Shown: positions 3,144 to 42,993 of the stretch, in pieces | How the letters are laid out: every line of letters starts with the position of its first letter | Position numbering within the stretch: position 1 is the stretch's first letter | Source: a virus | Taxonomy: Duplodnaviria > Caudoviricetes | Reading direction: 5' to 3' (one strand) | Length of the DNA: 52,888 nt | Virus record (IMG/VR): IMGVR_UViG_3300046703_000201 | Span: 1 to 52,888 of that record | Notes under the pieces: model-generated | What the model was told of the DNA's origin: nothing | Databases searched by the model: none | What the model saw: only the letters and a program-made list of their open reading frames with translations | Made by a program: the position numbers and the translations under genes

Positions 3144-4697
3144 ATGGCACTAGACCCTAACATCCCGCTTTCCATGCCCAAGCAACCTTCTCCTATGGAG
3201 CAGATGGGTCAGGCATACGACCTGGCCGGGGCGATGGAAAAACAGAAGTCCATGCAGGAACAGCGGCAGGATTCGGCCAACCTGCAACAGTACCTTAAGG
3301 AAGGCGGAAATCTGGATACGCCGGAGGGTTTAACCAAAGCAGCGGAATGGGCGAAAGGAACATTGTCGCCCGGCGGTTATCAGACCATCATTAAGGCCGG
3401 TCAGGAAAAAGAGGTAAATCGTCTGAAACAGGTTGAAGCATTGGCGAAACTGGATGAAATTAAATTCGGCAATATGCTAAAAACAACCGAAATTCTTACA
3501 AATACCATAGGGCCTTTGCTCACAGAACACGACCAACGTGCTGGTGCAACAGGCGAGGCAGGCGTTGGCAAGCAACAAGCGGCAGAAGAATTCAAAACCA
3601 AATTGCAACCCGTATTGCAAAATCTGGTACAGAACAAAGTTATCACACCAGAACAAGCCGCGCAACATGCCAATGACACGCCCGAACAGGCGCGAAGAGT
3701 GCTGGAAAGCACAACTTCTGGTCAGAAAATGTTGCAGGATGCCGAAACATTACGCAAAACCCGCGCCGAAGCATCGCAAAAAGAACTCGGCGATGAAGCA
3801 ATCCGGCAAAACTTGGTCAAGCAATTCGGCGAAACCAGCCCGCAGGTTAAACGGTTCGATAATATGCAATCGGCGAAACTGGCGCATGAACAGCGGCTGG
3901 CGAAGGGAGTTGGACTTGGTGGTGTTGGTGGGTCAACAGGTTTACCTGCAAAAGGCTGGAAATTCGTTCAATCATCTGAAGGCATTTATCGCGCCAATCC
4001 AAATGCTGGTATTGTTCAAAAACAGGATGAAGAAACAGGGGAATGGTCGCAAGTTCTTGAAAGCGCAATGCCGGTTGAAGTAGTAGAAAAATTGGGCGGC
4101 GCAAAAGGCGTCAGTGCTATTACTGATCGTTTGAATCGTCGCACCATGACTGCGGCAGGCGAAGTATCGCGCGCTCTTAATATGGTAGCGATGATGCCGG
4201 TAGGTCAATCAGAAGGGATATTCAATTATGATAAACCGAGTGGAATTACAACAGCAATAAAACGTGAGATGACTTCGCAAGAAGCAATTGACTACAACGC
4301 CGCCACATCGGCAATGGCTTTGGAATTGACGACACTGCTGCGAGGCGGTATGCAGTTGAATGAAGCAGAAATAAAGGAAGTCAAGGAAGGTTTGACAGTA
4401 CAACCTGGCATGAATATCGGAAATGCACGATTCAGATTCGCCAATACCGTATCAAAAGTTTTAACTGCTTTGGAAAATTTTGAGCCGACATCATCGCAAC
4501 AAGCAGATCAAAAAGAAAAATACATCAAGGAATTGTCCAAATATCCAAGTCCTGAACAGGTTTATCAGGAAAACCGGACAGGTCAAGTTAAAAAACAAAC
4601 AATGGCTGAGAGTTTGGCTAAAACAAAAGCAAAAGCAAAAGCGGAACCCAAAGAAGATTTTGCTGCCATGCTTAAAAGTCTTGGAGTAAAGAAATGA
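3144..4697 (+). CDS. DNA ejection/internal virion protein
   Basis: MALDPNIPL start typical of this class; helical composition; synteny. Confidence 0.65.
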   Translation: MALDPNIPLSMPKQPSPMEQMGQAYDLAGAMEKQKSMQEQRQDSANLQQYLKEGGNLDTPEGLTKAAEWAKGTLSPGGYQTIIKAGQEKEVNRLKQVEALAKLDEIKFGNMLKTTEILTNTIGPLLTEHDQRAGATGEAGVGKQQAAEEFKTKLQPVLQNLVQNKVITPEQAAQHANDTPEQARRVLESTTSGQKMLQDAETLRKTRAEASQKELGDEAIRQNLVKQFGETSPQVKRFDNMQSAKLAHEQRLAKGVGLGGVGGSTGLPAKGWKFVQSSEGIYRANPNAGIVQKQDEETGEWSQVLESAMPVEVVEKLGGAKGVSAITDRLNRRTMTAAGEVSRALNMVAMMPVGQSEGIFNYDKPSGITTAIKREMTSQEAIDYNAATSAMALELTTLLRGGMQLNEAEIKEVKEGLTVQPGMNIGNARFRFANTVSKVLTALENFEPTSSQQADQKEKYIKELSKYPSPEQVYQENRTGQVKKQTMAESLAKTKAKAKAEPKEDFAAMLKSLGVKK

Positions 4698-11010: not shown

Positions 11011-11571
11011 ATGAACACACAGCAATTGACCGAGCATTTTTCTCTGGCTGAATTAACCGAATCGGACACGGCAACCCGGCTGGGTATCGACAACACGCCA
11101 CCTGATAGTTTGCTGGACAATTTGAAACAAACGGCGGTGATGGCCGAGGCGGTACGGACGATCCTGGGTGATGAAGCTGGTCATGAAATTTACATGACGG
11201 TGACTTCCGGATTCCGGTGTGAAGCACTCGAAAAAGCGTTATGCCAAAAGGACTATGAATCCTGGTGTAGTAAGCATCAGTTGAGCGTCAATGCCGAATC
11301 ATGGAAACGCTATTTCTCACGCAAGGCGCATCCGCAGGGCAGGGCATTGGATTTTCGCGCACCGGCATTTGGTGTGCCGTATCACATTGTGCGAATTCTT
11401 CAGAAGCATCCCGAATTAATCGCCCAGATCGACCAGATTATCCTGGAAGGTGTAACAGTCAAGAATGAAGGCTGGGTACATATCGGCTGGTCAAATTATC
11501 CGCGTCATCAGGTCATGACGGCGTTGTTTGACGCAAATGGCACGCCTCATTACATGAATGAACTGACATGA
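11011..11571 (+). CDS. Endolysin, peptidase M15A family
   Basis: LTEHFSLAELT, TSGFRC, H..GRALD, WVHIG motifs. Confidence 0.85.
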   Translation: MNTQQLTEHFSLAELTESDTATRLGIDNTPPDSLLDNLKQTAVMAEAVRTILGDEAGHEIYMTVTSGFRCEALEKALCQKDYESWCSKHQLSVNAESWKRYFSRKAHPQGRALDFRAPAFGVPYHIVRILQKHPELIAQIDQIILEGVTVKNEGWVHIGWSNYPRHQVMTALFDANGTPHYMNELT

Positions 11572-11984: not shown

Positions 11985-12464
11985 ATGCTTCCATTTATTC
12001 CGGCACAATATCAATTTCTTGCCAAATTTATCGTTGTTATGGCCGTGGCCGGATCGGGCGCGTTCGGGGCATGGTATGTAACCAGCGATCATTACCAGGC
12101 CATTATCGCGCAGCATGCGCTTAGTGATGCGACAGCGGTAAAGACGGAGTTGCAGCGTCAGAATAAAATCAAAACCGATCAAGCAGAAAAAACCAGACTG
12201 GCGGAGGATCAACATGCGCTCGATCAACTTATTATCAATCGTCTTAGTCATCAGCCTGCAAGCGTGCAAGTCCATACCCCCAAGTGTGGCAGTGCCATGC
12301 CCGGAGCCGGTCAAGCAGCCGTTGATACCAACGGAGCCAGTGGGGTACTTTCAGACCGAGTGGACGCGGCTTTTGCTGAATTACAAAGCCAAACTGGACA
12401 ACTTGTCGAGCGGTGCGACCAACTCAACATCGACGCCATAGCGGCAAATAACAGGAACCACTAA
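11985..12464 (+). CDS. Rz-like i-spanin
   Basis: N-terminal TM helix, coiled coil, two Cys; contains a lipoprotein ORF in another frame. Confidence 0.75.
   Translation: MLPFIPAQYQFLAKFIVVMAVAGSGAFGAWYVTSDHYQAIIAQHALSDATAVKTELQRQNKIKTDQAEKTRLAEDQHALDQLIINRLSHQPASVQVHTPKCGSAMPGAGQAAVDTNGASGVLSDRVDAAFAELQSQTGQLVERCDQLNIDAIAANNRNH
12214..12441 (+). CDS. Rz1-like o-spanin lipoprotein embedded in Rz
   Basis: GGAGG RBS, signal peptide with lipobox LQAC, Pro-rich mature part. Confidence 0.75.
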   Translation: MRSINLLSIVLVISLQACKSIPPSVAVPCPEPVKQPLIPTEPVGYFQTEWTRLLLNYKAKLDNLSSGATNSTSTP

Positions 12465-12673
12465 GTATCAATGGAATCTTTCCGAACCGGCATTCCACGC
12501 GGGTCGACATCCAAAAATTTCACATCGCATCTATAATGCTGTAGCGTTTCAGGAAGATAACAGTCGCCATCTTCAAGCACGTAATAAGTTCCATCGAATA
12601 CGCCGTGCATTATTTCCCCAGACCAGTTCATATTTAACACAGTGCAGAATTTTGGGAAACCTAACTCTTGCAT
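12461..12673 (-). CDS. Hypothetical protein, paralog of 20268-20483
   Basis: Shared PKFCTVL.MNWSGEI.HG.FDG..YVL.DGDCYLPETL. Confidence 0.75.
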   Translation of the reverse strand: MQELGFPKFCTVLNMNWSGEIMHGVFDGTYYVLEDGDCYLPETLQHYRCDVKFLDVDPRGMPVRKDSIDT

Positions 12674-14272: not shown

Positions 14273-14499
14273 AAGAGCAAAAATTGGTAGAAGGCCAACT
14301 TGTCCAACTGAATCCGGAAACAGTTGAAAATCCAATGTTCGCCGCTTGTATCATGGTGGTAACAGAACCAAAACCGTGGGGTGCCCAAGGGTATGTGCAA
14401 AGTCTGGGCGAAAACGGACTTCCCGGCGGACAAGCATATTATCGTGCCAAATGGGAAGAGATGGAGGTAGTTGGTTTTGTTGAATGTTTGCGCGCTTAA
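14269..14499 (+). CDS. Hypothetical protein
   Basis: ATGA overlap with the upstream gene. Confidence 0.65.
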   Translation: MKEQKLVEGQLVQLNPETVENPMFAACIMVVTEPKPWGAQGYVQSLGENGLPGGQAYYRAKWEEMEVVGFVECLRA

Positions 14500-15611
14500 A
14501 TCCGCGCAAACATAGCATTCGCCTTTGCCAGTTCCTGCCGGTTGTCGTTCGCATCCAGCCAAGTCGAATACACGCGCTGGAACATGACTATCGAGTGCCC
14601 CAGTTGTTTGGCCGCCCAACGGTCCCGCGCGCCTCCCATCAGTAACATGGTGGCGCAGGTATGCCGGGTCTGCCTGGCATCACGATCCCGTATCCCGCAC
14701 CTTGCCAATGCAGGGCGCCAATAATTTTGCACCAGGCAGGAAGTATCCGCATAAGGTCTGCCGGTGTTAGGATGGATAAAAAGATGCTCGCTGGCAGTCA
14801 ATCCCCGCAATCGCTTCAGCAAGGCAATACTTTCATCGGAAATCTCAACCCGTCGCACGCATTCTGTTTTGGTCAGTTTAACGATCCCGCGTACTTTGGC
14901 TGAAGAGATTATCAGCGACTTCCTTTCCCAATCCACATTTTCCCAGCGCAAGTCAATTCCCTCGGAAGGGCGAAATCCTATCCGGAACGCGAGATTGAAA
15001 TAAATGGCAACCGGCTCCGGATAATGCTGCCGCATATCATCCAACACCTTGGACATTTCTTCGATGTTTAGCGGGTCCGGTTCCGGATCGGCTATCTTCG
15101 GGAACTCGATTTTTATGGCATGATTGACTGTTACTGCTCCCGCATCCATGCCAAAACTATAGATGCAGCGCAATACCGAGAGGATGTTATGAAAGGTCTT
15201 GTTGGATATTTCGAGTCTGGACATTAGTTCGTTGAGTTCCAGGAAGCTGATGTCTGCCATGACTCTATCGCCCAGCGATCCGAAGTAAGCCGCTATAGTA
15301 GTGCGGTATTCCCGAATAGTAGTCTCGGCTAAAACTCTTCTTCGTGAATCCAGCCAGGACGAAGCGACCTCTTTAAACAAGAGACCATTTTTTAGCTTCG
15401 CATGTTTTGACTCAGGGAAGAACTCTTTGAAATCGAATGTGCCGGCACCGATACGTTTCAGTATCTCACGACGTATCGAGGCGGCTAGTTTAAGGTTAGC
15501 CGGGGTCGGAGTTAGCTTTAGTGTCGGAAAGTATCGCTGGTCATTCCAAGTGAAGATAATGCGTATGGAAGAGCCGCGCGGCGAAACCCCTTCGTATAGT
15601 TTACTGGTCAT
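14496..15611 (-). CDS. Tyrosine integrase with N-terminal arm-binding (DUF3596-like) domain
   Basis: GVSPRGSSIRIIF..PTPANLKLA N-terminus; GFRPSE, QTRHT, LGHS, VY catalytic motifs. Confidence 0.9.
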   Translation of the reverse strand: MTSKLYEGVSPRGSSIRIIFTWNDQRYFPTLKLTPTPANLKLAASIRREILKRIGAGTFDFKEFFPESKHAKLKNGLLFKEVASSWLDSRRRVLAETTIREYRTTIAAYFGSLGDRVMADISFLELNELMSRLEISNKTFHNILSVLRCIYSFGMDAGAVTVNHAIKIEFPKIADPEPDPLNIEEMSKVLDDMRQHYPEPVAIYFNLAFRIGFRPSEGIDLRWENVDWERKSLIISSAKVRGIVKLTKTECVRRVEISDESIALLKRLRGLTASEHLFIHPNTGRPYADTSCLVQNYWRPALARCGIRDRDARQTRHTCATMLLMGGARDRWAAKQLGHSIVMFQRVYSTWLDANDNRQELAKANAMFARI

Positions 15612-17160: not shown

Positions 17161-18171
17161 ATGGCAACTGTAGAAAGAACCAAAAACGGATGGCGCTGTC
17201 AGGTTTATGTCGATGGTAAGCGGCCATCAAAAACATTTCGCACCAAGCGGGAAGCTGATGCATGGGGATCGACAAAAGAGATTGAATTGCGCACGCAAAA
17301 AACAATGCTGCCCGGAGAAAAGTTCGCTTTTTACGAAGCGATGGATCGGTATATGGAGGAAGTATCTACCACCAAACGCGGAGAACGATGGGAGCGGATT
17401 CGGATTACTGCGCTAAAAGTTGATCCGTTGTTGCGCTGCAATGAACCCATCAGCCACATCAAAACTACTCATCTCGTTGATTGGCGCAATGCCAGGCTAA
17501 AAGTGGTAAAGCCCAATACTGTGTTACGAGAAATTACATTGCTCTCGGATATTTTTGAGACAGCACGCAAAGAATGGCATTGGATTGAGGTAAATCCCAT
17601 TCGGGACATGAGCAAACCATCTAAAGGTAAAAGCCGCGAAGTAGTAATTACTGCAAAGCAAATCCGGCTTATGCTTCAGACAATGAATTACTCATCCGGT
17701 CAATCAGTTCGTACAATGACACATGCCGTTGCGAATTGTTTCTTGTTGGCATTACGCACTGGTATGCGCGCGGGTGAATTGTGTAATTTGACATGGACTA
17801 ATGTGCATGATGGTTGGTGCCATTTGCCGATAACCAAAACGGTCTCGCGTGATGTGCCGATCACTCCCAAGGCAAAAGTTATTATCGAACGGATGCGCGG
17901 ATGGGATTCGCAATCGGTGTTCGGGTTGAAAGCACAAACACTTGATGCGCTATTTCGGAAATATCGGAATAAAGCGGAGTTGGAAGGGTTTACATTCCAT
18001 GATTCGCGGCACACTGCCGCGACATGGATTGTTGGTAATATGCATTCTAACAGTGTCCCGGCGCAACAAGCGGTATTCGATTTGTGCAAGATGTTCGGAT
18101 GGAAGAATACCGATCAAGCACTGGTTTATTACAATCCTCATGCGCGAGATATAGCCAAGCGCATTGGTTGA
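17161..18171 (+). CDS. Phage tyrosine integrase
   Basis: TGMRAGEL, FHDSRHTA, FGW, YY motifs; GGAG RBS. Confidence 0.92.
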   Translation: MATVERTKNGWRCQVYVDGKRPSKTFRTKREADAWGSTKEIELRTQKTMLPGEKFAFYEAMDRYMEEVSTTKRGERWERIRITALKVDPLLRCNEPISHIKTTHLVDWRNARLKVVKPNTVLREITLLSDIFETARKEWHWIEVNPIRDMSKPSKGKSREVVITAKQIRLMLQTMNYSSGQSVRTMTHAVANCFLLALRTGMRAGELCNLTWTNVHDGWCHLPITKTVSRDVPITPKAKVIIERMRGWDSQSVFGLKAQTLDALFRKYRNKAELEGFTFHDSRHTAATWIVGNMHSNSVPAQQAVFDLCKMFGWKNTDQALVYYNPHARDIAKRIG

Positions 18172-18396
18172 TTATTTCAGGATAGCTTCGTCAATCTGCG
18201 TAATGGGAATTAAACCGAAAGCATTGAGTTTGAACGTCCCATTCCGCACGAGTTTGCACATAGTTTGCGGACTGATGTGTAACATTTTTGCTGCCTGCGC
18301 CTGGTTGACATGGGGCGGGCGCGGATGGGTTTCGGCATAACGCTTTACGGCTATGGTCGCAATTTCAATCATTTCGCGGTTCATTTTTTCTCCCAT
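18172..18396 (-). CDS. Excisionase-like HTH protein
   Basis: VNQAQAAKMLHISPQTMCKLV HTH; converges on integrase. Confidence 0.7.
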   Translation of the reverse strand: MGEKMNREMIEIATIAVKRYAETHPRPPHVNQAQAAKMLHISPQTMCKLVRNGTFKLNAFGLIPITQIDEAILK

Positions 18397-18445
18397 GTAA
18401 GGTGTAAAACTCGTCTATTGCCAGATTAGACACCTATCAAGGTGT

Positions 18446-19273
18446 CTATTTTAAGTTATGCCCACCCAGCGCACTGGCTAGGAAGCTCTCTTGTTTATAA
18501 ACTTTCGTCATTTTCGGTGTGCAAAACAATGAGGGTTGGTTAAGTTCGCGTTCAATCCTCGCGCTTGCGGCCTTAAAAAAATCTTTCTTGATCTCAAAAC
18601 CATAGGCGCTACGTTCCGCCCTGATGGCGGCAATTATTGTGGATGCACTGCCAGCGCATGGGTCTATCACAACATCGCCGGGGTCTGTGAATATTGAAAT
18701 CAATCTCTCGATCAACCGAACCGGCTTTTGCGTAGGATGTATCTTCTCGCTGTTGGTATCGCTCTCCCACGGAATTGCATTAAAGATCATCTTGCCGTGA
18801 TTGTTGAATTTTGGGAGCTTGTCGCGGTACAAAATTAGTCCGTATTCGCAGTTGCCTACCACGCGCATATTTGCCTTGAGCACTTGCGCCGATGAGTTCT
18901 TTACAAATACTAGATTGATGTATCTGTTCAGCCCGTGCTTTTTGGCCTCCTCTATCAATTCAAATTGTTGGTCAAACGCACAGAAAACAATCATGCAGGG
19001 TGCTTTACCCGTTTCTTTGGGTTCTGGTATCAACATCTTCGAGCAGAAATGCAAAAATTCAGGTATGCGAAAATCTTTATCTGTGTCGAAGAATTCTTTA
19101 TTTGCAAGCTCGCTTTCGCCGTTTTTATTGTCACCGCCCACGTACCACTCCGGGCTAGACCCATAAGCGTTTTTCCCCACGTTGTAGGGGATGTCAGCAA
19201 TGATGAGTTGCGCTTTTTTAATGGCGTACCGCTTCGAGTTTTGAAAGTGATCGTTAAAAAGTTCGTGCTTCAT
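18446..19273 (-). CDS. Orphan N6-adenine/N4-cytosine DNA methyltransferase (beta-class order)
   Basis: ADIPY catalytic motif, HPTQKP, VVIDPCAGSAST SAM-binding motif; GGAG RBS before ATG 19273. Confidence 0.9.
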   Translation of the reverse strand: MKHELFNDHFQNSKRYAIKKAQLIIADIPYNVGKNAYGSSPEWYVGGDNKNGESELANKEFFDTDKDFRIPEFLHFCSKMLIPEPKETGKAPCMIVFCAFDQQFELIEEAKKHGLNRYINLVFVKNSSAQVLKANMRVVGNCEYGLILYRDKLPKFNNHGKMIFNAIPWESDTNSEKIHPTQKPVRLIERLISIFTDPGDVVIDPCAGSASTIIAAIRAERSAYGFEIKKDFFKAASARIERELNQPSLFCTPKMTKVYKQESFLASALGGHNLK

Positions 19274-19292
19274 GTTGTCTCCAAGAAAAACC

Positions 19293-19377
19293 GCATAACC
19301 TAACGTTCGAGCGGAGCGCCCGAAGCGTGGCTTTTCAATCAAAAATTTATGCGCGCCCGCTCAACTACACGTTGGGC
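19293..19377 (+). other. attC site (85 bp)
   Basis: R'' GCATAAC, 5 nt, L'' GTTCGAGC ... L' GCTCAAC, 5 nt, R' GTTGGGC; extra C in L''. Confidence 0.85.
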
Positions 19378-19601
19378 GACACAAATAGCGCATCGTATGT
19401 CGCGTCGAACACTGCGCGCATCGTGTGGATGCTCACCTTGTGCAGCGCCTGATCGTTAAATGTTCTTGCGTGGTACAGCGCCCACGCTTTGTCGTGCCAT
19501 TCGGCGCGAGATACCCCGCACGCTGGCGGGTGAAAGTCGCCCAACCCTACAGTCGAGTGGGACTGCGCCGAAGCGGTCTTGTTTGGTTCAGTTGCATTCA
19601 T
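19365..19601 (-). CDS. Hypothetical cassette protein
   Basis: 78 aa; RBS and ATG lie in the loop of one attC and the stop lies in the next. Confidence 0.6.
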   Translation of the reverse strand: MNATEPNKTASAQSHSTVGLGDFHPPACGVSRAEWHDKAWALYHARTFNDQALHKVSIHTMRAVFDATYDALFVSPNV

Positions 19602-19660
19602 TTTGCTTATCTCCGTTTGATTGCTCTGCGGTGGCGCAGCCCCTCACTTTTACGTTCCAC
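19539..19660 (+). other. attC site (122 bp)
   Basis: R'' GCCCAAC, L'' AGTCGAGT, CTGCGCC/GGCGCAG stem, L' CCTCACT, R' GTTCCAC (non-consensus). Confidence 0.75.
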
Positions 19661-19678
19661 CCCGCGCTTCGCGCGGGG

Positions 19679-19785
19679 GTGGAACGCGCGGATAACCTGT
19701 GAATCATCGCCCACGCCGGCGCGTGGTGGAACAGGCGATGAATCACACTCCACCTTCGGCGGAGGTGGTTATCCGCGCGTTATGC
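19679..19785. other. Atypical attC-like branched palindrome
   Basis: AACGCGCGGATAACC/GGTTATCCGCGCGTT perfect arms enclosing nested hairpins; bounded by GTGGAAC and GTTATGC. Confidence 0.55.
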
Positions 19786-19786
19786 A

Positions 19787-20257
19787 TCACCCAACCCATC
19801 GCCACTTCCCCCCTACGAGGTCGTCGCCAATAGGTTGCGCGCTGCGCCCTGGGCGGTTGTGCCACATCGCTGCACTTCCGCCCGCATCTTCCTTGTCGAG
19901 CCGAAAACCAGCGGCTCGCAAACTGGCTCCGCCTTCTTCTGGCAGAGTGTAGGTGTAAATCGGATTATGTCCCATTGCTCTTGCTGCCCTGCGTGCCGCC
20001 CCGTACAGTATCGAGCAGGCGTTTCGCGTTCCATCCGTGCAAAGGCGCGTTATTTCAGCGGCCATGCCGTCGTCAAGTCGTGGCGCTACCGGACGCCCAA
20101 CTATGGCAACCCCTCGCAGCGTGTTACTCTCATCAACTACTCCAACCGCGAACTTGTGCCCAATCACTGGGCGGCTGTGTCTATGCAAACGACGTACAAA
20201 ATCGTTCGCCGTTTTCAAGTCGGTTGGTACGATTCGCAGTTTCATGGGCAAAGGCAT
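19787..20257 (-). CDS. XF1762-like conserved phage protein
   Basis: ANDFVRRLHRH..GHKFA, VGRPVA..LDDG, RLCTDGTRNACS.LYGAA, EGGASLRAAG. Confidence 0.8.
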   Translation of the reverse strand: MPLPMKLRIVPTDLKTANDFVRRLHRHSRPVIGHKFAVGVVDESNTLRGVAIVGRPVAPRLDDGMAAEITRLCTDGTRNACSILYGAARRAARAMGHNPIYTYTLPEEGGASLRAAGFRLDKEDAGGSAAMWHNRPGRSAQPIGDDLVGGKWRWVG

Positions 20258-20313
20258 AACCCGGCGCTCAACCCGGACCCCGCGAAGCGGGGCCGGTTAG
20301 CTCTGCGTTAGAC
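20254..20313 (+). other. attC site (60 bp, 59-be size)
   Basis: GCATAAC CCGGC GCTCAACC CGGACCCCGCGAAGCGGGGCC GGTTAGC TCTGC GTTAGAC. Confidence 0.9.
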
Positions 20314-20483
20314 ATACGAGGGTCGCTATCCAGATATTTAGCGTCATAATGCAATAGCGTTTCAGGCAGGTAGCAATCCCCATCGTCCAGGACATAATGT
20401 ATTCCGTCGAATGTGCCGTGCAATATCTCGCCAGACCAGTTCATATCCAACACAGTGCAAAACTTCGGATAGTATTCAGTCAT
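20268..20483 (-). CDS. Hypothetical protein, paralog of 12461-12673; C-terminus encoded by the attC
   Basis: Shared motif; ends SNAELTGPASRGPG inside the attC. Confidence 0.75.
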   Translation of the reverse strand: MTEYYPKFCTVLDMNWSGEILHGTFDGIHYVLDDGDCYLPETLLHYDAKYLDSDPRMSNAELTGPASRGPG

Positions 20484-20782: not shown

Positions 20783-21229
20783 TCAAAACGGGATGTCGTC
20801 GTCAAAGTGGTCGAACGGCGCAGCCTTTGATTCCGATGCGCTTTCGTTTGGTTGATGATCTTGCGTTTGTGCCGAGCGCGGTTGTTGCGCGCTATCCGGC
20901 TTGCCGCCCAGCATTTTCATTTCGCTGACGATGATTTCTGTCGTATAGCGATCCTGGCCGGTTTCCTTGTCTTGCCATTTGCGGGTTTGCAGTTTGCCTT
21001 CGACATAAATCAGGGAACCTTTCTTCAGGTATTGGCCGGCGATTTCGGCCAATTTGCGGTAGAACGTCAAATTGTGCCACTCGGTTTTTTCCTGCTTGTC
21101 GCCGTTCTTGTCCTTCCAACTTTCCGAGGTCGCCAGCGAGGTGTTGGTTACGGCATCGCCGTTTGGCATGATTTTGGATACCGGGTCTTTGCCCAGATAC
21201 CCGATCAGAATGACTTTGTTCACTGACAT
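20783..21229 (-). CDS. ssb: Single-stranded DNA-binding protein
   Basis: [37 protein letters not shown] tail. Confidence 0.97.
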
Positions 21230-21242
21230 TGCAATCTCCTTA

Positions 21243-21467
21243 TCAATAATCCGAACTGGCACCGCCGCCACCATAATCCCCGCCACCGCCGAAAAAACTA
21301 CTGCTCTCCTGCGCCTCTTTGGTTTCCGCAATATCGCTATATCCGGGCGGGGTGGGGTAGATCACGCTTACACCTGCGGTTTGGGCGTCTTGCAAATCAC
21401 AGCGTTCGCAATGAAGCCCTCTTTTAGTTAAAGCCGTTTTGCCGCACCGCTTGCATTTATAGATCAT
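21243..21467 (-). CDS. Small zinc-finger protein with Gly-rich tail
   Basis: CKRC..CERC; [13 protein letters not shown]. Confidence 0.6.
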
Positions 21468-22722: not shown

Positions 22723-23337
22723 TTAACCGATTGCGTGGCGGGTTTCTTGTACCAGCGCCAGAAACTCGCCGCGCCGGTCTTGCAGGCGTTTTATTTCATC
22801 CTGACAATCGTCCCGGTAGAGGCGGTAGGTGATGAGTTGTCGGTTGGGGGGAAAGTCGGAACAATAGCTGATAAAATCCACCCAATCGCGCTGCGTGCAA
22901 TCCAGGTGCCCGACCAACTGCCAGCGATAGGCGGGGTCAAAACTGCCCCGGCGCAGGGTGGCATAATGGGTTTTGGCGATGACGGATTTTATTTCTACCA
23001 CACCATCATTCCCGACCAGGCCATCCGGCGAATCGCCGTAGCATGACCAGTCAAAAAAACCGCCATTTTTAACATCGACAAAGCTCATTTCAGCGTAGAG
23101 TTCACGGGCAATCGGTTCCTGCTCATGTCCCCGTTCCATATGGTCATTGGAAAAGCTGAATTCGGCACGCTTGCCGGTGACTTGTTCCAGGGCGAGTTGC
23201 AGCGCATAGTCCTTGGCTGGGTCACCAAATGTCTTGCCTTCGTTCGCCATGATGATGCCGAATTTTGAGGCAGTGGCCTTGCCGAGTCGTAAAGCCATCC
23301 ACTCTTCGGTGTTTTGGGGAATGTCGTGGAAGATCAT
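22723..23337 (-). CDS. YqaJ/lambda-exonuclease family protein
   Basis: QNTEEWMALRLGKATAS, MERGHEQEP, SPDGLV..EIK. Confidence 0.9.
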   Translation of the reverse strand: MIFHDIPQNTEEWMALRLGKATASKFGIIMANEGKTFGDPAKDYALQLALEQVTGKRAEFSFSNDHMERGHEQEPIARELYAEMSFVDVKNGGFFDWSCYGDSPDGLVGNDGVVEIKSVIAKTHYATLRRGSFDPAYRWQLVGHLDCTQRDWVDFISYCSDFPPNRQLITYRLYRDDCQDEIKRLQDRRGEFLALVQETRHAIG

Positions 23338-24729: not shown

Positions 24730-25068
24730 TTATTTTTTCTGGTTTATCATCAATCTGGCATGAGCGAGCAGAATTGCGCGCATTTCTTCGCTCATTTTTT
24801 CGTATAGCTCGGTAAGTTCGTTTTCTTCGGCCTCATCATGGCTCACATCCATCCAGCCCAAAGGCTTGCCGCAACCAGCTTCGAGTTGTCGGGCCAGCGT
24901 GGAACCCATCACGGCCACTTTGCCATTCTTATTTTTGAACTGGGTCGAAATCTGCGACAGGTTATGCCTGGATGTGCCGGCAGCGCGAGCCACCGCCGCA
25001 GCAGATTTAAACTCTGCCACCAGAACTTCGAGGTTGCTGCGGCGTATTTCTTCAATGGTCGATTTCAT
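24730..25068 (-). CDS. CI-like repressor, HTH only
   Basis: EIRRSNL, MGSTLARQLEAGCGKPLGWMD; divergent from the cro-like gene; no S24 domain. Confidence 0.8.
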   Translation of the reverse strand: MKSTIEEIRRSNLEVLVAEFKSAAAVARAAGTSRHNLSQISTQFKNKNGKVAVMGSTLARQLEAGCGKPLGWMDVSHDEAEENELTELYEKMSEEMRAILLAHARLMINQKK

Positions 25069-25075
25069 GCGCGCA

Positions 25076-25157
25076 ATCTTAGCTGGTTGCATAGATTTTG
25101 CAAGCATTTTTTTTATTTTGTTGTGCTGTTGACATAACATGCGTTCAGCATAATAAT
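25076..25157. promoter_or_regulatory. Divergent pRM/pR-like promoters with operators
   Basis: Plus strand TTGACA 25129-25134, 17 nt, AATAAT; minus strand TTGCAA..TAAGAT 7 nt before the cI ATG. Confidence 0.65.
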
Positions 25158-25190
25158 GCGCCATCCATAACAAAACCAAAAAATCACGGC

Positions 25191-25400
25191 ATGGACAAAA
25201 CAATCGAAATCAATGATCTCACGCCCGGCGAACGGCGCGAACTGGCAAAAAATATCGGCAAGAGTGATGTGTTTTTGTGGCAATGCGGGGACGGTATCCG
25301 CACCCCCAGCCTGGCAACCGCCGATGCCCTGATCGACCATGAACCGCGCCTGACGGTAAAAACCCTGCTGGCACCCAAGCGCAGACGCGAAGCAATGTGA
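25191..25400 (+). CDS. Cro-like HTH protein
   Basis: ERRELAKNIGKSDVFLWQC..GIRTPS. Confidence 0.75.
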   Translation: MDKTIEINDLTPGERRELAKNIGKSDVFLWQCGDGIRTPSLATADALIDHEPRLTVKTLLAPKRRREAM

Positions 25401-25654
25401 ATTCTACCCGCACTCTCCTGCGCTTGGAAATCGCGCGAGGTCTTGAGCATTTGCCAAAAGGTGCGGATATGCGGCTGCATATCAAAATGTTGCCGCCGGA
25501 CAGGCGAGGGTTTTTAAGTGCGCTGGCTGATTGGGTTGAGGATTACCAGAAGCACCAGCAATCATTTGATGATGTGCTGATGGCTGCCGTCAAGATCAGC
25601 CGCGAAAGAAAAATTCAGGCGGTACAACCATTGCGGGGGATTCATGGCCGGTGA
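25397..25654 (+). CDS. Hypothetical protein
   Basis: GTGA overlap with cro. Confidence 0.55.
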   Translation: MNSTRTLLRLEIARGLEHLPKGADMRLHIKMLPPDRRGFLSALADWVEDYQKHQQSFDDVLMAAVKISRERKIQAVQPLRGIHGR

Positions 25655-26420
25655 CTGGATCAAGATCGAAAATGAATTGCCGGACAAGCCGGAAGTTCAC
25701 GCCATTGCCGCGAAGTTGAATATTGACCCGGATGCGGTGGTCGGCAAGCTGATTCGGGTTTGGCAATGGTTTGATAAACACACGGTTGATGGTAACGCTC
25801 TCGGCGTTAGTTTTGCGTTAGTGGATCGTATAACCGGCGTTATCGGATTTGGCGAAGCGATGATGTTTTCTGCATGGCTGGAGCAAAAAGACAAGATGCT
25901 GGTCATGCCGCATTTTGACCGGCATACCTCGTCAAGTGCCAAAAAACGGGCGTTGACAGCCAAACGGGTCGCAAACTTTGAACAAAAAACTAACGCGAAG
26001 GCTAACGCTACAACTAACGCTGCGAACGTTAGCGGAGCGTTACCTAGAGAAGAGAAGAATATATCTATTACTAACGTAATAGATAAGGGCGCTAATCGCG
26101 CCAAGAAATTGCCGGATGATTTTTTGCCAAACGAATGGCACATCGTCTATGCGCTGCAAAACAAACTGAATCTGGAAGAACAGTTTGCCCAGTTTGCCGA
26201 TTACCACAAGGCGCGGGGCAGCACGATGAAAGACTGGAATGCCGCGCTGCGCACTTGGCTGCGCAACGCCACGCAATACCGCAAGACCAGCCCGTCGGAC
26301 AAACCCGGCAAACCGAATTATTTTGACCACTTGCAGGATGTGAGCAACCAGCTAACGGGGAGAACGACAAATGCCGGTATTACCCTTGACATGGATCAAC
26401 GCATTATTTCAAAAATTTGA
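25644..26420 (+). CDS. Phage replication initiator (O-like)
   Basis: MAGDWIKIE..LPDKPEV, VVGKLIRVW.WFD, C-terminal F.DY..DWNAALRTWLRN. Confidence 0.8.
   Translation: MAGDWIKIENELPDKPEVHAIAAKLNIDPDAVVGKLIRVWQWFDKHTVDGNALGVSFALVDRITGVIGFGEAMMFSAWLEQKDKMLVMPHFDRHTSSSAKKRALTAKRVANFEQKTNAKANATTNAANVSGALPREEKNISITNVIDKGANRAKKLPDDFLPNEWHIVYALQNKLNLEEQFAQFADYHKARGSTMKDWNAALRTWLRNATQYRKTSPSDKPGKPNYFDHLQDVSNQLTGRTTNAGITLDMDQRIISKI
25988..26035. repeat. Iteron-like repeats (putative origin)
   Basis: CTAACGC three times at 12-bp period plus an inverted copy, inside the initiator gene. Confidence 0.6.
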
Positions 26421-34388: not shown

Positions 34389-36239
34389 ATGTCAAAGCCT
34401 GTAATCACAAAGGCAAAACCGATAGAGCAAGGCAATACAACAGCGCACGATCCAGCACAGCCATGCGCAGCAGACGCACCACGCAAGCGCGGCAGACCAC
34501 AGCAACCAGGCAGCGCGAAAAAAAGTAAGGTTCCATCCAGCCCGGCGAAAACGGAAACGGTAGAGAAAAAAAATAAAAATGCCATTCCCCCCTCTCCAGT
34601 ATCGCCGCAAAAATTTTTAGACGGTCGTGCAGTTAGCACGAATTATTCGGCTTATCTCGCCAAATTCCAGTCCAATCTCGACGTACCGTTCCGCGACATC
34701 TTCGCGTGGTGGGAGATGAAGACGGAGAATTACAAGAACGTGACGGCGGTACGGGCGTTGTGTTTGTGGGACAGGTACTTTCTTCTCGTCCAAATCTTCG
34801 GGCGGCAGGACATGCTGCATCCGTGGTTGTACGAGCGGTGCCGGGAAGTCGAAAGAGAGCCGGATAATTGCCTCGACCTATGGAGTCGTTTCCACTACAA
34901 GAGTACGATCATCACTTATGGCGGTGTGATACAGGAAATTCTGAGAGAGCCGGAAGTGACGGTGGGGATTTTCTCCCACGTCAAGCCGATTGCGAAAGGG
35001 TTTTTGGCGCAGATCAAGCGCGAACTTGAGTCGAATGTGCAGTTGAAGGGATTATTCCCCGATATTCTTTACGACAATCCGGAGCGTCAATCCCCGTCGT
35101 GGTCGATAGATAACGGGCTGATCGTAAAACGGCGGTCTAACCCGAAAGAGCCAACGGTCTCTGCCTGGGGTTTGGTGGACGGACAGCCGGTTTCGGCCCA
35201 CTTCAAGTTGCGGGTTTACGACGACGTGGTGACGCAAGCCTCGGTCTCCACGCCGGAACAGGTCTCGAAGACCACGGAAGCGTTTGACGTATCCGCGAAC
35301 CTTGGGACTGAGAACGGACGCAAATGGATGGTGGGGACGCGGTGGTCGTATGCCGACACTTACGCCGAACTCATCAAGCGGCAGATTTGCAAGGTAAGGC
35401 TGTACCCATCGACGGACGACGGGACGTTTACCGGGAAACCTGTGCTGTGGGGGGAAGCCTTCAACGAACAGATGAAGCTGGAACAGGGCGAGGCGACCTA
35501 CGCCGTCCAGTGCCTTCAGAACCCCCTGGCCGGCTCCCAGAAGATGTTCGATGTGTCTGACCTTCAGACGTATGAGGTGAGGCCGGATACGCTGGCGGTT
35601 TACATCCTGATCGACCCGGCACGGTCGAAGAAGACCGAGTCGGACAATACCGCGATGGTAGTGATCGGTTTGGACTATGCCTCGAACAAGTATTTGCTGG
35701 ATGGGTTTAATCACAAGATGGACTTGCAGGAACGGTGGCAGCGCACGTCGCAGTTGTACCAGCGATGGAGACGGGCGGCGGGGGTGCAGGCGATTTATGT
35801 CGGGTACGAGTCATTCGCAGCACAGGCTGACCTGGATTACTTCAAGGAACAGCAGAACCTGCAAAAACTCTTCTTCCCGATTGTGGAACTTTCGTGGCCG
35901 CGCGAAGGTGGCGGGTCGAAGATAGACCGGGTGCAACGGCTGGGACCGGACATGCGGTCGCACAAGATATTCCTGCCCTATCCGACCGACGACAAGAACC
36001 TCACGGCGAACCAGCGCAAGATGATTCAAGGGTATGAGTATCGTATTGCACGGCAAATCAAGCGCAAGGACTCGAACGACGAAGCGTATGACCTGACCGA
36101 GCAGTTGAAGACGCAGATTTTCTACTTCCCTTTCGGGGGCAAGAAAGATTTGGTGGATGCGCTGTCCCGAATCTACGACATGGAACCCAGGCCGCCGACT
36201 TATCGGGAGCAAAGGTATTCCGAACCGGAGTTTGTTTAG
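34389..36239 (+). CDS. Terminase large subunit (start uncertain)
   Basis: Variant Walker A SRFHYKST, Walker B RVYDD, GTRW, nuclease ILIDPA..D..DLVDAL. Confidence 0.88.
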   Translation: MSKPVITKAKPIEQGNTTAHDPAQPCAADAPRKRGRPQQPGSAKKSKVPSSPAKTETVEKKNKNAIPPSPVSPQKFLDGRAVSTNYSAYLAKFQSNLDVPFRDIFAWWEMKTENYKNVTAVRALCLWDRYFLLVQIFGRQDMLHPWLYERCREVEREPDNCLDLWSRFHYKSTIITYGGVIQEILREPEVTVGIFSHVKPIAKGFLAQIKRELESNVQLKGLFPDILYDNPERQSPSWSIDNGLIVKRRSNPKEPTVSAWGLVDGQPVSAHFKLRVYDDVVTQASVSTPEQVSKTTEAFDVSANLGTENGRKWMVGTRWSYADTYAELIKRQICKVRLYPSTDDGTFTGKPVLWGEAFNEQMKLEQGEATYAVQCLQNPLAGSQKMFDVSDLQTYEVRPDTLAVYILIDPARSKKTESDNTAMVVIGLDYASNKYLLDGFNHKMDLQERWQRTSQLYQRWRRAAGVQAIYVGYESFAAQADLDYFKEQQNLQKLFFPIVELSWPREGGGSKIDRVQRLGPDMRSHKIFLPYPTDDKNLTANQRKMIQGYEYRIARQIKRKDSNDEAYDLTEQLKTQIFYFPFGGKKDLVDALSRIYDMEPRPPTYREQRYSEPEFV

Positions 36240-36315
36240 GTGAGTGTAGCTCAGAGGTAGAGCAGAGTCCCTTATAAGGCTTTGGTCAATGGTTCGAATC
36301 CATTTGCTCACACCA
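36240..36315 (+). tRNA. tRNA-Ile(TAT)-like gene with an 8-nt anticodon loop
   Basis: Acceptor GTGAGTG/TGCTCAC-A-CCA, D arm GCTC/GAGC, T arm AATGG-TTCGAAT-CCATT, anticodon arm GAGTC-CCTTATAA-GGCTT. Confidence 0.8.
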
Positions 36316-40509: not shown

Positions 40510-40720
40510 ATTTCGCCGTTATTGGAAAGCATTTTTCATCCTGGTTCGTTACAACGAATATGTTTTCTATATTATTGAACAAGAGTGTTTTAATCAATCT
40601 GAACTCAAAGAAAGAGTAAAAGATAATGAGCAATATGTGGAAAACTGTAAATTAAAAAAATTCGCTCAGCAGAATTATGCGGATGTTCAGGCCGGACTAT
40701 GGAGAGAAGGTACTAATTAA
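40499..40720 (+). CDS. Hypothetical protein
   Basis: AT-rich ORF coupled to the portal start (TAATG). Confidence 0.5.
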   Translation: MFNKFRRYWKAFFILVRYNEYVFYIIEQECFNQSELKERVKDNEQYVENCKLKKFAQQNYADVQAGLWREGTN

Positions 40721-42993
40721 TGGCATCTTTGCTTCCCGACCGTAAAAACACTGCTCCTACCGCCCAGACCGGCGGCAGGAATGGTGCCATCAGCACGCCG
40801 CGCGGCGACACACCCGACTGGCTCTCGCGCGCCCAGCGTGCCTATAGCTCATCCACCACCTATGTGGACGCGAACTATCGCAAACAGTGGGAAGACTCGA
40901 TCCGCTCATTCAACAACCAGCACGCCACCGACTCGAAATATAACGCCCCCGCCTACGACAAGCGCAGCAAACTGTTCCGGCCAAAAACGCGGTCCATCAT
41001 CCGCAAGAACGAAGCCGCCGCCGCAGCGGCTTTTTTCTCCAACCTGGATGTGACCAGCATTTTACCTTCCGACCCGAACAACAAGGCCGAAGTCGCAAGT
41101 GCCGCGATCATGAAAGAACTGATGCAATACCGCCTGACCAAAACCATCCCGTGGTTTATGGTCGTGCTGGGCGGTTTGCAGGATGCGCAAGTGGCCGGCG
41201 TGGTGTGCGCGCACGTCTACTGGAAATACGAAGAACGTAACCCTGAAAATGTGGCGGAGCGGACGGGTTTGAAACCCGCCCCTACGGAGGAAACGTCTGA
41301 TCTGCCGGAAGACGCCATGCTGCGCCAAGTTCCGCCCGAAGTCATGATGGGCACCACCGGCATGTCGCGTGATGAAATGATGGGTAGGGGCGGGTTTGAA
41401 ACCCGCCCTTCGCAAGACGAAGAATACCCCGCCCAAACACAACTGCCTGACAATGCGATGCAGGCCACCCCCGAAGGTTTGAGCAAAGAAACCGCACCGC
41501 CCATTGAAGGCGAAATCGTAGTAGAACAAGAAGCAGTCGTCATCCTGAAAGACGAACCCGCCATAGACCTCATCCCGGTGGAAAACCTGCGCATCGACCC
41601 ATCAGCAAGTTGGATCGACCCGGTAAACACCTCGCCCTACCTCATCCACCTCATCCCGATGTATGCGATGGATGTCAAGGCCAAGATGAAAACCGGCGAG
41701 TGGAAAAACATGTCCGAGTCCGAGATTGCGGCAGCGACCGAAATCACCCCCGACTCCACCCGCATCACCCGCAACAAAAACAAGGACGACCCCTATACCG
41801 GCGCATCGAGAGACGTATCCGACTACGAAATCATCTGGATACAGCGCCACATCCATAAGTCCAATGGCGACGACTGGGAGTTTTACACCTTGGGCGACAT
41901 CGCCCTGCTGACTGAAGCCCGCCTGTTAAAAGACAGCGTATTCACCGGCAAGCGTCCCTATGTCATTGGCAATTGCAATATCGAAACCCACAAGGTCATG
42001 CCGTCCCCCATCACCCTGCTAGCAAAGGGCTTGCAGGACGAAACCAACGAAATCGCCAACCAGCGCATCGACAACGTAAAGTTTGTGCTAAACAAAAAAT
42101 GGTTCGTAAAGCGCGGCAAGGAAGCCGATGTAACCGGCCTGCTGCGCAATGTGCCCGGCGGCGTGGTCATGCTGGACGACCCCGAAACCGACGTGCGTGA
42201 AGTGACCTGGCAGGATGTCACAGCCAGCTCGTTTCAGGAACACCAGACCCTCTCGCTGGAAATGGACGAACTGCTCGGCAGTTTCAACCCTGCCGCCCTG
42301 ATGATCGCCGGGGCGAACAACTCCCCGGCCAAGAACATGCAGATGGTATCGAACAGTTCCGGCACGCTGACGGAATACCTGATCCGCACCTATGTTGAAA
42401 CCTTCGTGCAGCCGGTGTTGCGTATGCTCATGCTGCTCGAACAAAAGTACGAAACCGACCAAGTCGTGCTGGCCTTTGCCGGCAAGCGGGCAGAGCTGTT
42501 CCAGCGGTTCGGCATCGACAAAGTAACCGATGAATTACTGGAAAAAGAACTCACCCTCACCGTGAACGTCGGCATGGGCGCCACCGACCCGAACGCCAAG
42601 CTGAACCGCTTCATCGCGGGTATTACCGCTTACACCGCTGTGATCTCTCGTCCCGTCCCCGGACTCAATGTAGCCGAAGTAGGCAAGGAAATCTTCGCGC
42701 ACCTGGGCTATTCTGACGGGGCGAGGTTCACGACCGTGGACAACCCGCAAGTGCTGCAACTGCAACAACAACTGCAACAGGCACAAGGCATCATCCAGCA
42801 ACTTCAGCAAAAGACCAAGGAAAAACAAACCGGCCATATGGTATCCTTGCAGAAAGCACGGGAAGGCAACCAGACCAAGCTGACGGCGGTACAAATACAG
42901 GAAGAAAACGAGAATAAACGTGCCGTGGCGACCCATATGCGCGCGCTGATGGAAGCGCAGCAGATGCTTGGGAAGACAGGAAAGGTAGTTTAA
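40720..42993 (+). CDS. Portal protein (P22/N4-like podovirus)
   Basis: RSKLFRPKTR, NLRIDP.A, LQDETNEIANQRIDN, Gln-rich C-terminal barrel; synteny. Confidence 0.85.
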   Translation: MASLLPDRKNTAPTAQTGGRNGAISTPRGDTPDWLSRAQRAYSSSTTYVDANYRKQWEDSIRSFNNQHATDSKYNAPAYDKRSKLFRPKTRSIIRKNEAAAAAAFFSNLDVTSILPSDPNNKAEVASAAIMKELMQYRLTKTIPWFMVVLGGLQDAQVAGVVCAHVYWKYEERNPENVAERTGLKPAPTEETSDLPEDAMLRQVPPEVMMGTTGMSRDEMMGRGGFETRPSQDEEYPAQTQLPDNAMQATPEGLSKETAPPIEGEIVVEQEAVVILKDEPAIDLIPVENLRIDPSASWIDPVNTSPYLIHLIPMYAMDVKAKMKTGEWKNMSESEIAAATEITPDSTRITRNKNKDDPYTGASRDVSDYEIIWIQRHIHKSNGDDWEFYTLGDIALLTEARLLKDSVFTGKRPYVIGNCNIETHKVMPSPITLLAKGLQDETNEIANQRIDNVKFVLNKKWFVKRGKEADVTGLLRNVPGGVVMLDDPETDVREVTWQDVTASSFQEHQTLSLEMDELLGSFNPAALMIAGANNSPAKNMQMVSNSSGTLTEYLIRTYVETFVQPVLRMLMLLEQKYETDQVVLAFAGKRAELFQRFGIDKVTDELLEKELTLTVNVGMGATDPNAKLNRFIAGITAYTAVISRPVPGLNVAEVGKEIFAHLGYSDGARFTTVDNPQVLQLQQQLQQAQGIIQQLQQKTKEKQTGHMVSLQKAREGNQTKLTAVQIQEENENKRAVATHMRALMEAQQMLGKTGKVV
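41261..41408. repeat. Two REP copies translated in frame inside the portal gene
   Basis: 41261-41285 GGACGGGTTTGAAACCCGCCCCTAC and 41384-41408 GTAGGGGCGGGTTTGAAACCCGCCC. Confidence 0.85.

Follow-up and report, generated by a model that had tools for sequence, protein, structure and literature searches.

The window analyzed here is the whole of IMG/VR record IMGVR_UViG_3300046703_000201 (52,888 bp). It contains an array of gene cassettes with three model-supported attC sites within 1.1 kb, and it encodes no integron integrase (IntI). The record comes from a metagenome assembly and was rated complete by CheckV. Because no IntI is present in the complete 52.9-kb phage, the array is a CALIN, a group of attC sites with no integron integrase. 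As defined in PMC9892861 and preprint 10.1101/2022.09.11.507474, a CALIN needs at least two neighboring attC sites and no intI close by. The phage is temperate and has a lambdoid-style gene map, as found by PHROG and Pfam scans of the window. The array lies after a 71-aa open reading frame (ORF) of the leftward early operon and before the gene for a small helix-turn-helix (HTH) protein at 18172-18396. The GC content is 0.58-0.61 over 19400-20300, compared with about 0.47-0.50 in the flanks.

The array contains four units. The left junction is a GTTATGC core at 18455-18461 (+), with the crossover point G|TT at 18455|18456; it is complementary to the R'' box of attC1 (GCATAAC, 19293). Cassette 1 (18456-19371, +, 916 bp) contains a methyltransferase gene on the bottom strand and attC1. 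Cassette 2 (19372-19654, +, 283 bp) contains a 78-aa ORF on the bottom strand and attC2. Unit 3 (19655-19779, +, 125 bp) contains no ORF and has a crossover point at each end. Cassette 4 (19780-20307, +, 528 bp) contains the gene for an XF1762-family (Mom-like) protein on the bottom strand and attC3.

Nine 7-mer cores run through the array: GTTATGC at 18455, GCATAAC at 19293, GTTGGGC at 19371, GCCCAAC at 19539, GTTCCAC at 19654, GTGGAAC at 19679, GTTATGC at 19779, GCATAAC at 20254, and GTTAGAC at 20307. All nine are where the first-pass annotation, which a model made from the sequence alone, had placed them. Its statement that complementary cores bound every unit was borne out as well, at the start and end of 4/4 units. 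Each unit begins with TTxxxx, complementary to the R'' box of its own site, which is the signature of a circular intermediate. In genuine integrons used as a control, 47/59 consecutive detected site pairs had complementary cores, compared with 12% when partners were shuffled.

The sites were located with a scanner for AAC...GTT pairs with 4- to 6-nt spacers (5 nt favored), which also recorded the stem and the side of its bulges. A polar site was one with a score of at least 8 and at least two bulges, on one arm only. In both strands of the 52,888 bp, the scanner found exactly three polar sites, at 19293-19377, 19539-19660, and 20254-20313. The number expected by chance was 0.1 (mean of 40 block shuffles). 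Each of the three has spacers of 5+5 nt, and its bulges are confined to the 5' arm of the + strand. The extrahelical bases C...A on the + strand correspond to G...T on the bottom strand. All three canonical sites have inverse R'' (...AAC) and R' (GTT...) cores and a G|TT crossover point, and the atypical unit has cores too.

Covariance models were trained on 20 chromosomal integrons of the Burkholderiales, each linked to an IntI; their array sides were used, and the scanner found 76 sites in them. Model R1 was built from 40 well-aligned short sites (alignment A2). Its 139 matches in the 20 bacterial arrays became the training set of model R2, which contains no phage sequence. The window was searched with R2 on both strands with filters off. 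It gave three full-length matches (E 2e-10 to 6e-7), all on the + strand; their coordinates and strand, like those from the scanner, are identical to the first-pass annotation's, which had named an absence of covariance-model hits as evidence against itself. The next-best match was the reverse strand of attC1 (15.9 bits, E 0.16). With R1, two of the three sites scored 53.5 and 43.8 bits.

attC1 (19293-19377, +) is 85 nt long. It scores 49.0 bits (E 3e-9) with R2 and 10.0 with the scanner, with the path MMM5MMMMMM5MMMM. attC2 (19539-19660, +) is 122 nt long and has a long variable center. It scores 38.9 bits (E 6e-7) with R2 and 11.5 with the scanner, and its path, MMM5MMM5MMM5MMMMMMM, is that of the Shewanella integron sites. 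attC3 (20254-20313, +) is the last of the array and is 60 nt long, with GTTAGAC as R'. It scores 53.7 bits (E 2e-10) with R2, and its bottom strand folds with a z score of -2.69. Site scores were 39-54 bits in the window and 22-78 bits in active-looking bacterial arrays. Identities of 19 nt were found between attC1 and attC2 and sites in the Burkholderiales integron loci L159 and L162. An Rfam search of the sites at gathering and E-value thresholds returned no matching family, and Rfam has no attC family. A consensus attC pattern proved too insensitive for a viral survey, with 25 matches in bacterial arrays where 139 model matches exist and 3 in phage arrays. Judged by scanner and models, the three are genuine attC sites of the Burkholderiales type.

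Unit 3 has a GC hairpin at 19654-19685 and a very stable three-way fold at 19679-19785. The fold has an energy of -41.4 kcal/mol (z -8.5), with paired spacers and no bulges. The unit holds two copies of GTGGAAC that match its first bases. No relatives of it were found in the 1.3 Mb of fetched loci, or in viral contigs by a gapped pattern. Our reading of unit 3 is a cassette that lacks an ORF and whose site is degenerate or unusual.

Two tyrosine recombinases are encoded within 4 kb of the array. The integrase at 17161-18171 (+), convergent with the leftward operon, matches PF00589; TIGR02249 is not among its matches, and its Xer-type scores are far under the cut-offs. The second integrase, at 14496-15611 (-), scores 37.3 bits with TIGR02249, for which the cut-off is 265. 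Neither is an IntI, in agreement with the first-pass annotation. No IntI was found in the 52.9-kb window, where the best six-frame TIGR02249 score was 22 bits, and the record holds nothing at the level of a complete integron (TIGR02249 of at least 265 bits). Loci with related integrases (L003-L007) contained no attC sites.

An IntI at an E value of 1e-5 or below was likewise absent in 23/23 viral records holding an XF1762 gene. It was present above the cut-off in 3/3 bacterial genomes with the XF1762 cassette. The order of one of these cassette-bearing genomes was sampled, and 88/201 of its genomes (44%) encode an IntI above the cut-off. This tally includes one unpublished genome, G052, and becomes 87/200 without it. 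The base rate of 44% shows that an IntI helper is often at hand for the phage. The phage host probably belongs to the Burkholderiales in the GTDB sense.

The family-supported genes of the array (methyltransferase and XF1762) are all on the - strand. The polarity of the sites themselves was calibrated on two control sets. One was a pair of IntI-bearing phage integrons, in Vibrio phage MK672802 and Shewanella phage MZ568829, which the accessible text of PMC9892861 names as phages with integrons; there the bulges fall on the 5' arm of the strand that is sense for the genes. In the other, the 20 Burkholderiales integrons, the strand predicted from intI was recovered for 76/76 scanner sites and 139/139 model matches. 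Because bulge polarity agrees in both sets, the + strand of the window is the canonical attC top strand. The genes are therefore on the bottom strand, as the first-pass annotation had them.

The same polarity was found in related arrays. R1 gave 84 matches at an E value of 1e-3 or below in 27 loci. The 79 matches in 18 phage or prophage loci were all antisense to the reference gene (79/79). The remaining 5 belong to the integron of G024, a betaproteobacterial metagenome-assembled genome (MAG), and their strand is canonical to intI. The R2 matches in L050, L100, and L127 were antisense in 11/11 cases. Array ORFs were then compared with PHROG and Pfam. A first set of 123 ORFs from phage arrays (58 +, 65 -) gave 18 matches, and a second set of 69 gave 5, 2 of them new; all were on the reference-gene strand. 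Array ORFs with a family match in phage loci are thus antisense in 20/20 cases. Their families include Mom-like proteins, N6_N4 and MT-A70 methyltransferases, and a GNAT acetyltransferase. Family-matched cassette ORFs in 20 randomly drawn bacterial arrays were 19 sense and 1 antisense, the latter an insertion sequence (IS) transposase. The difference between phage and bacterial cassette genes is significant (Fisher p = 3e-10).

One further bacterial integron was inspected. It is in G026, another XF1762-bearing genome (L045 2729-4215), and two or more of its cassettes are antisense and encode phage-family proteins, crAss001_48/phrog_774 and phrog_13613. Apart from the IS transposase, the 20 random integrons of the same order contained no antisense family-matched cassette.

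The XF1762 cassette is shared as a unit. Homologues of its protein were found in 23 viral loci, most with 73-91% protein identity. DNA homology between the window and L009 spans 19778-20313, which is cassette 4 with its cores. In five loci (L008, L009, L010, L011, and L021) the homology has its left end at 19776-19778, adjacent to the crossover point 19779|19780 (G|TT). This supports the cassette reading of the first-pass annotation, as does the occurrence of the cassette beside an IntI (below). Its neighbors differ among the 15 viral loci that have attC sites. Matches between loci at 88% DNA identity or more were cassette-sized or smaller in 16/17 cases; the exception is L018/L019, which are 100% identical over 8,023 bp. 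The same attC (97% over 69 nt) precedes the XF1762 gene in one contig and an MT-A70 methyltransferase gene in the other (L008 1009-1077, L009 7272-7340). attC sites and genes can evidently be re-paired.

The XF1762 gene was found in three bacterial genomes, and in G024 it is on the same contig as IntI (contig C73, locus L042). The order there is IntI (479 bits), an attI-side junction at G|TTGGGC, and then the cassettes. These are bounded by TTGGGC/GCCCAA, TTATGC/GCATAA (XF1762), TTAGAG/CTCTAA, and TTAGAA/TTCTAA. The XF1762 protein of the second cassette has 89% identity to that of the window; the cassette has the same boundaries, and the gene is again antisense. The integron is chromosomal, since rarA-, serS-, and SLT-type housekeeping genes lie on the opposite side of intI. 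A repeat of the cassette nearest the attI junction follows the fourth one (1766-1865 and 3183-3260), and the R1 match there traces this second copy to about 3424. L042 thus contains one duplicated cassette. A second IntI in G024 (L043) has no sites on its array side.

Other units were shared less often. L050 contains a 78%-identical methyltransferase gene preceded by an attC of the same polarity; its bounding cores, GTTCGGC (2978) and GCCGAAC (3758), are unlike those of the window. The array of L127 begins at the stop codon of the SSB gene, and its first unit is bounded by GTTATGC/GCATAAC. Neither the 78-aa ORF unit nor unit 3 was found with the same boundaries elsewhere in the fetched loci or in viral contigs.

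The methyltransferase gene (18446-19273, -) encodes an N6/N4 DNA methyltransferase of 275 aa. It matches PF01555 (86.7 bits, cut-off 26.7) and phrog_67 (E 1e-51). Its last codons cross the junction into backbone sequence. The closest homologue, with 96% identity over residues 1-180, is in L100 (3540-4336), where it is broken by about 800 bp, after which the match resumes. An intron, an intein, or some inserted element might account for the interruption.

The 78-aa ORF (19365-19601, -) has no Pfam, NCBIfam, or PHROG match. It starts inside the variable center of attC2 (19570-19601), which provides a GGAG ribosome-binding site and the ATG. About 21 of its first codons are attC2 sequence. A homologue of residues 28-72 in L127 has a different N terminus and no attC beside it.

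The XF1762-family protein (19787-20245, -) has 152 aa from the ATG at 20245. It matches NF045478 (174.7 bits, cut-off 50) and phrog_1384, "Mom-like DNA modification protein" (E 6e-33). It scores 21.6 bits with the Pfam Mom family PF25680, under the cut-off of 27.1. An earlier ATG, at 20257, was given by the ORF finder and falls inside the R'' box. As suggested by its families, the DNA-modification cargo would likely protect phage DNA from host restriction (anti-restriction). The first-pass annotation had described the cargo as looking like phage genes.

The left flank of the array contains a terminator-like hairpin at 18427-18452 (+). It has a 9-bp stem (TAGACACCT / AGGTGTCTA) with TTTT after it and occurs only once in the window. 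The methyltransferase gene now takes its stop codon from this element. The stem-loop itself (18427-18448) is downstream of the integrase gene. It had been placed in the attI position by the first-pass annotation. We rejected it as an attI, since the TTTT after the stem gives it the look of a + strand terminator. No promoter-like site was found on the + strand upstream of 18455, and attI sites have no general model. The HTH protein gene next to it (18172-18396, -) is Xis-like by position. It has a weak PF12728 match and 61% identity to the neighbor of a related integrase in L003.

The right flank is the 71-aa backbone ORF (20268-20483, -), whose frame runs through the crossover into attC3, reading ...TCT AA|C. 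In the same frame, the methyltransferase gene continues past the left junction as ...CAT AA|C TTA AAA TAG. If the array were removed, the 71-aa ORF would end at the TAG of the left flank. This shared frame suggests insertion at a GTTAGAC secondary site, and the array was probably seeded there, 10 nt before the stop of the 71-aa ORF, to judge from the reading frames. Two protein relatives of this ORF were found, one an external protein and the other a paralogue in the window. They diverge after ...DPR, before the junction. The paralogue (12464-12673, -, 70 aa) is 76% identical over 54 residues and sits at the distal end of the second integrase module. There are thus two integrase modules in the phage, along with a small gene in duplicate.

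Taken together, we consider the array to be a four-unit CALIN in the early operon of a phage, with inverted cassettes that would be read with the early genes and most likely moved by host IntI. We give this reading a probability of about 0.8. The cassette genes would be transcribed with the early operon, and not from an integron Pc promoter, because they are on the attC bottom strand and co-oriented with the early genes on the map. The cassettes would most likely be moved by a host-supplied IntI that acts on the folded attC bottom strand with crossover at G|TT; the first-pass annotation had likewise named a host IntI in trans, with an unrecognized recombinase as the alternative. They would come from an "inverted" pool, whose members turn up in many phage arrays with this attC type and, now and then, in the chromosomal integrons of hosts. 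Host IntI may also have seeded the array, at the GTT-containing secondary site in the phage. In bacterial chromosomes, IntI was found in the laboratory to insert cassettes at non-att genome sites, termed attG (preprint 10.1101/2022.09.11.507474, accessible part, which also deals with small CALINs and SALINs). Such insertion offers host IntI a route to seed a GTT site; the available text describes it for bacterial chromosomes only, and a phage site would be an extension of it. We speculate that a fork moving leftward from the initiator gene (25.6-26.4 kb) makes the attC bottom (-) strand the lagging-strand template. According to the accessible text of PMC5371416, this placement favors folding and recombination of the attC bottom strand.

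The array may instead be a static relic that owes its presence to a single insertion, made either by host IntI acting on a secondary site or through illegitimate recombination involving a host integron; it would now be ordinary fixed cargo that has stopped exchanging cassettes in this phage. A phage without IntI and a unit without a canonical attC (19655-19779) would suit such an origin, but the attC scores of the window are as high as those in active-looking bacterial arrays, and 4/4 core pairs are perfectly complementary. Although most methyltransferase homologues are outside cassettes and no sister phage with different cassettes was found, the XF1762 cassette has varied neighbors in 15 viral loci, the matches between loci are mostly cassette-sized, and 44% of sampled genomes of the likely host order encode an IntI. 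We regard a relic as unlikely. A phage-encoded recombinase, either one of the tyrosine integrases or an unrecognized enzyme, may act on the sites in place of IntI. Both integrases score far under the IntI cut-off, however close to the array they lie, and the loci of related integrases are without attC. The bulges, 5-nt spacers, and cores match those of IntI-adjacent sites. The 23 cassette-bearing viral records hold no IntI and would accommodate such an enzyme, yet the identical cassette type is in a chromosomal integron beside IntI. We therefore find this explanation very improbable.

Least credible to us is that the hairpins are RNA or transcription elements, such as terminators or processing sites, that mimic attC by chance, or that the contig is an assembly chimera. 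All the sites are intergenic or overlap gene ends, as such elements would. The model matches are strand specific, however, with E values down to 2e-10, and three polar sites were found where shuffling gave 0.1. Terminators on the - strand were rejected because no T-runs follow the attC hairpins on that strand. The metagenomic source and the GC shift within the array would fit a chimera, but similar arrays are present in the CheckV-complete records G012 (which has terminal repeats) and G020. A chimera was rejected because phage genes flank both sides of the array and reading frames span both outer junctions.

Several observations weigh against a mobile, early-expressed CALIN. The fourth site of the first-pass annotation kept its cores and unit bounds but not its standing as an attC; besides its paired spacers and lack of bulges, it failed both models (best match 19726-19785, 12.4-14 bits, E 0.35-1 with R1 and R2). 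Model-detectable attC sites were missing from 8/23 viral XF1762 loci. Among loci found via the methyltransferase, the 78-aa ORF, or the integrase, only 3/86 had model matches. By these counts, the genes concerned are for the most part ordinary phage genes. Core complementarity in related phage arrays (21/35, 15% shuffled) is lower than the bacterial 47/59. Ascertainment accounts for part of the uniform antisense polarity, because the loci were found via the antisense genes of the window and cassettes within one array share polarity. The genes of the published phage TJE1 array are on the sense strand. Given a base rate of 44%, finding IntI in 3/3 cassette-bearing genomes does not reach significance (p about 0.08). 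That the methyltransferase and Mom-like protein modify DNA is putative and taken from their family names.

The comparison with related phages proposed in the first-pass annotation came out in part. Gene swapping at G|TT is seen across phages that share cassettes, but gain or loss of cassettes there was not seen within the lineage of this phage, a further point on the same side. No close relatives of the phage were found, and the nearest integrase relatives are 46-53% identical and without arrays. Searches with the 375-aa and 71-aa ORFs gave no related locus, and the hairpin 22-mer had no match in metagenome contigs.

Cassettes with a gene against the array direction are known in chromosomal integrons, namely, toxin-antitoxin cassettes. 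Such reverse cassettes are a minority in bacteria and have their own promoters. In the window, every identifiable gene is reversed and would depend on phage transcription. Morons are accessory genes slotted into phage operons. They are not known to have site-specific recombination sites, whereas the window array has them. The sedentary chromosomal integrons of the Burkholderiales (the 20 above and contig C73 of G024) resemble the window in attC type, crossover logic, and core complementarity. They differ in that the phage is without intI and has no recognizable attI or Pc promoter, and cassette genes are sense in 19/20 cases in the integrons and antisense in 20/20 in the phage arrays.

Phage-borne attC clusters without IntI had already been published. 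As far as the accessible text of PMC9892861 (2023) goes, CALINs occur in temperate and virulent phages with methyltransferase cargo, and IntI1 recombined 5/6 of the phage-borne attC sites tested. They share with the window the IntI-less attC clusters and the presence of DNA methyltransferases among the cargo. The TJE1 array described there is also beside a terminator-like hairpin. Its genes are on the attC top strand, while those of the window and related arrays are on the bottom strand. In the available part of Table S1, most of the phage CALINs listed have 2-3 sites only, and none has a Burkholderiales host. The window cassette is also found in a chromosomal integron, unlike the CALINs in the accessible text. 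A search of the available supplement text did not find the words "Burkholderia," "Mom," "antisense," or "opposite." No literature on the reversed polarity of phage cassettes or on XF1762 cassettes was found in sources other than subscription journals, which were outside the coverage. The bottom-strand genes, the XF1762 cassette in an IntI-adjacent chromosomal integron, and the DNA-modification cargo go beyond PMC9892861.

More tentatively, phages of Burkholderiales-type hosts might keep their own pool of reversed cassettes. The pool would contain DNA-modifying counter-defense genes, use host IntI, and be expressed only in phage operons, staying silent in host integrons. We consider this possible but doubtful. 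The reversed layout would put the attC upstream of the gene, where it can carry the ribosome-binding site. If the polarity is general for the pool, phages and hosts would use the same recombination machinery for separately expressed gene sets. It would also provide a testable route for rapid exchange of counter-defense genes among phages, and host integrons would store these genes alongside bacterial defense genes. Integrons are bacterial gene-capture devices, and recent work has described them as stores of anti-phage defense genes. Here a phage without IntI holds a well-formed array of DNA-modification genes, and one of its cassettes is common to a chromosomal integron and many phages. The methyltransferase and XF1762 genes, which occur with and without attC, are a natural case for how ordinary genes become cassettes.

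The remainder of the phage genome is organized as follows. The leftward early operon on the - strand encodes a phrog_21613 protein, a YqaJ-type exonuclease (22723-23337), a 375-aa ORF, an SSB (20783-21331), and ORFs of 86 and 71 aa. The repressor gene is at 24730-25203 (-), and the replication initiator gene is at 25644-26420 (+). A 35-nt palindrome at 26000-26034, within the initiator gene, has attC-like outer boxes (GGCTAAC...GTTAGCG) and only weakly matches the attC models (14 bits, E about 0.4). Instead of an attC, the palindrome may represent an element of an origin.

The late genes are on the + strand. They include those for the large terminase (34389-36239), the adaptor/portal protein (40720-42993), and an N4-like (N4-gp56-like) major capsid protein (45488-46498). 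The late block runs past the record ends, up to the endolysin gene at 11011-11571. A tRNA gene (36240-36312, 56.7 bits) begins 1 base past the end of the large terminase ORF. Directly upstream of the major capsid ORF are a group I intron (Rfam RF00028, 89.7 bits, 45212-45470) and an HNH endonuclease ORF (44796-45293), the end of which overlaps the intron. An intron carrying a homing endonuclease may interrupt the capsid gene.

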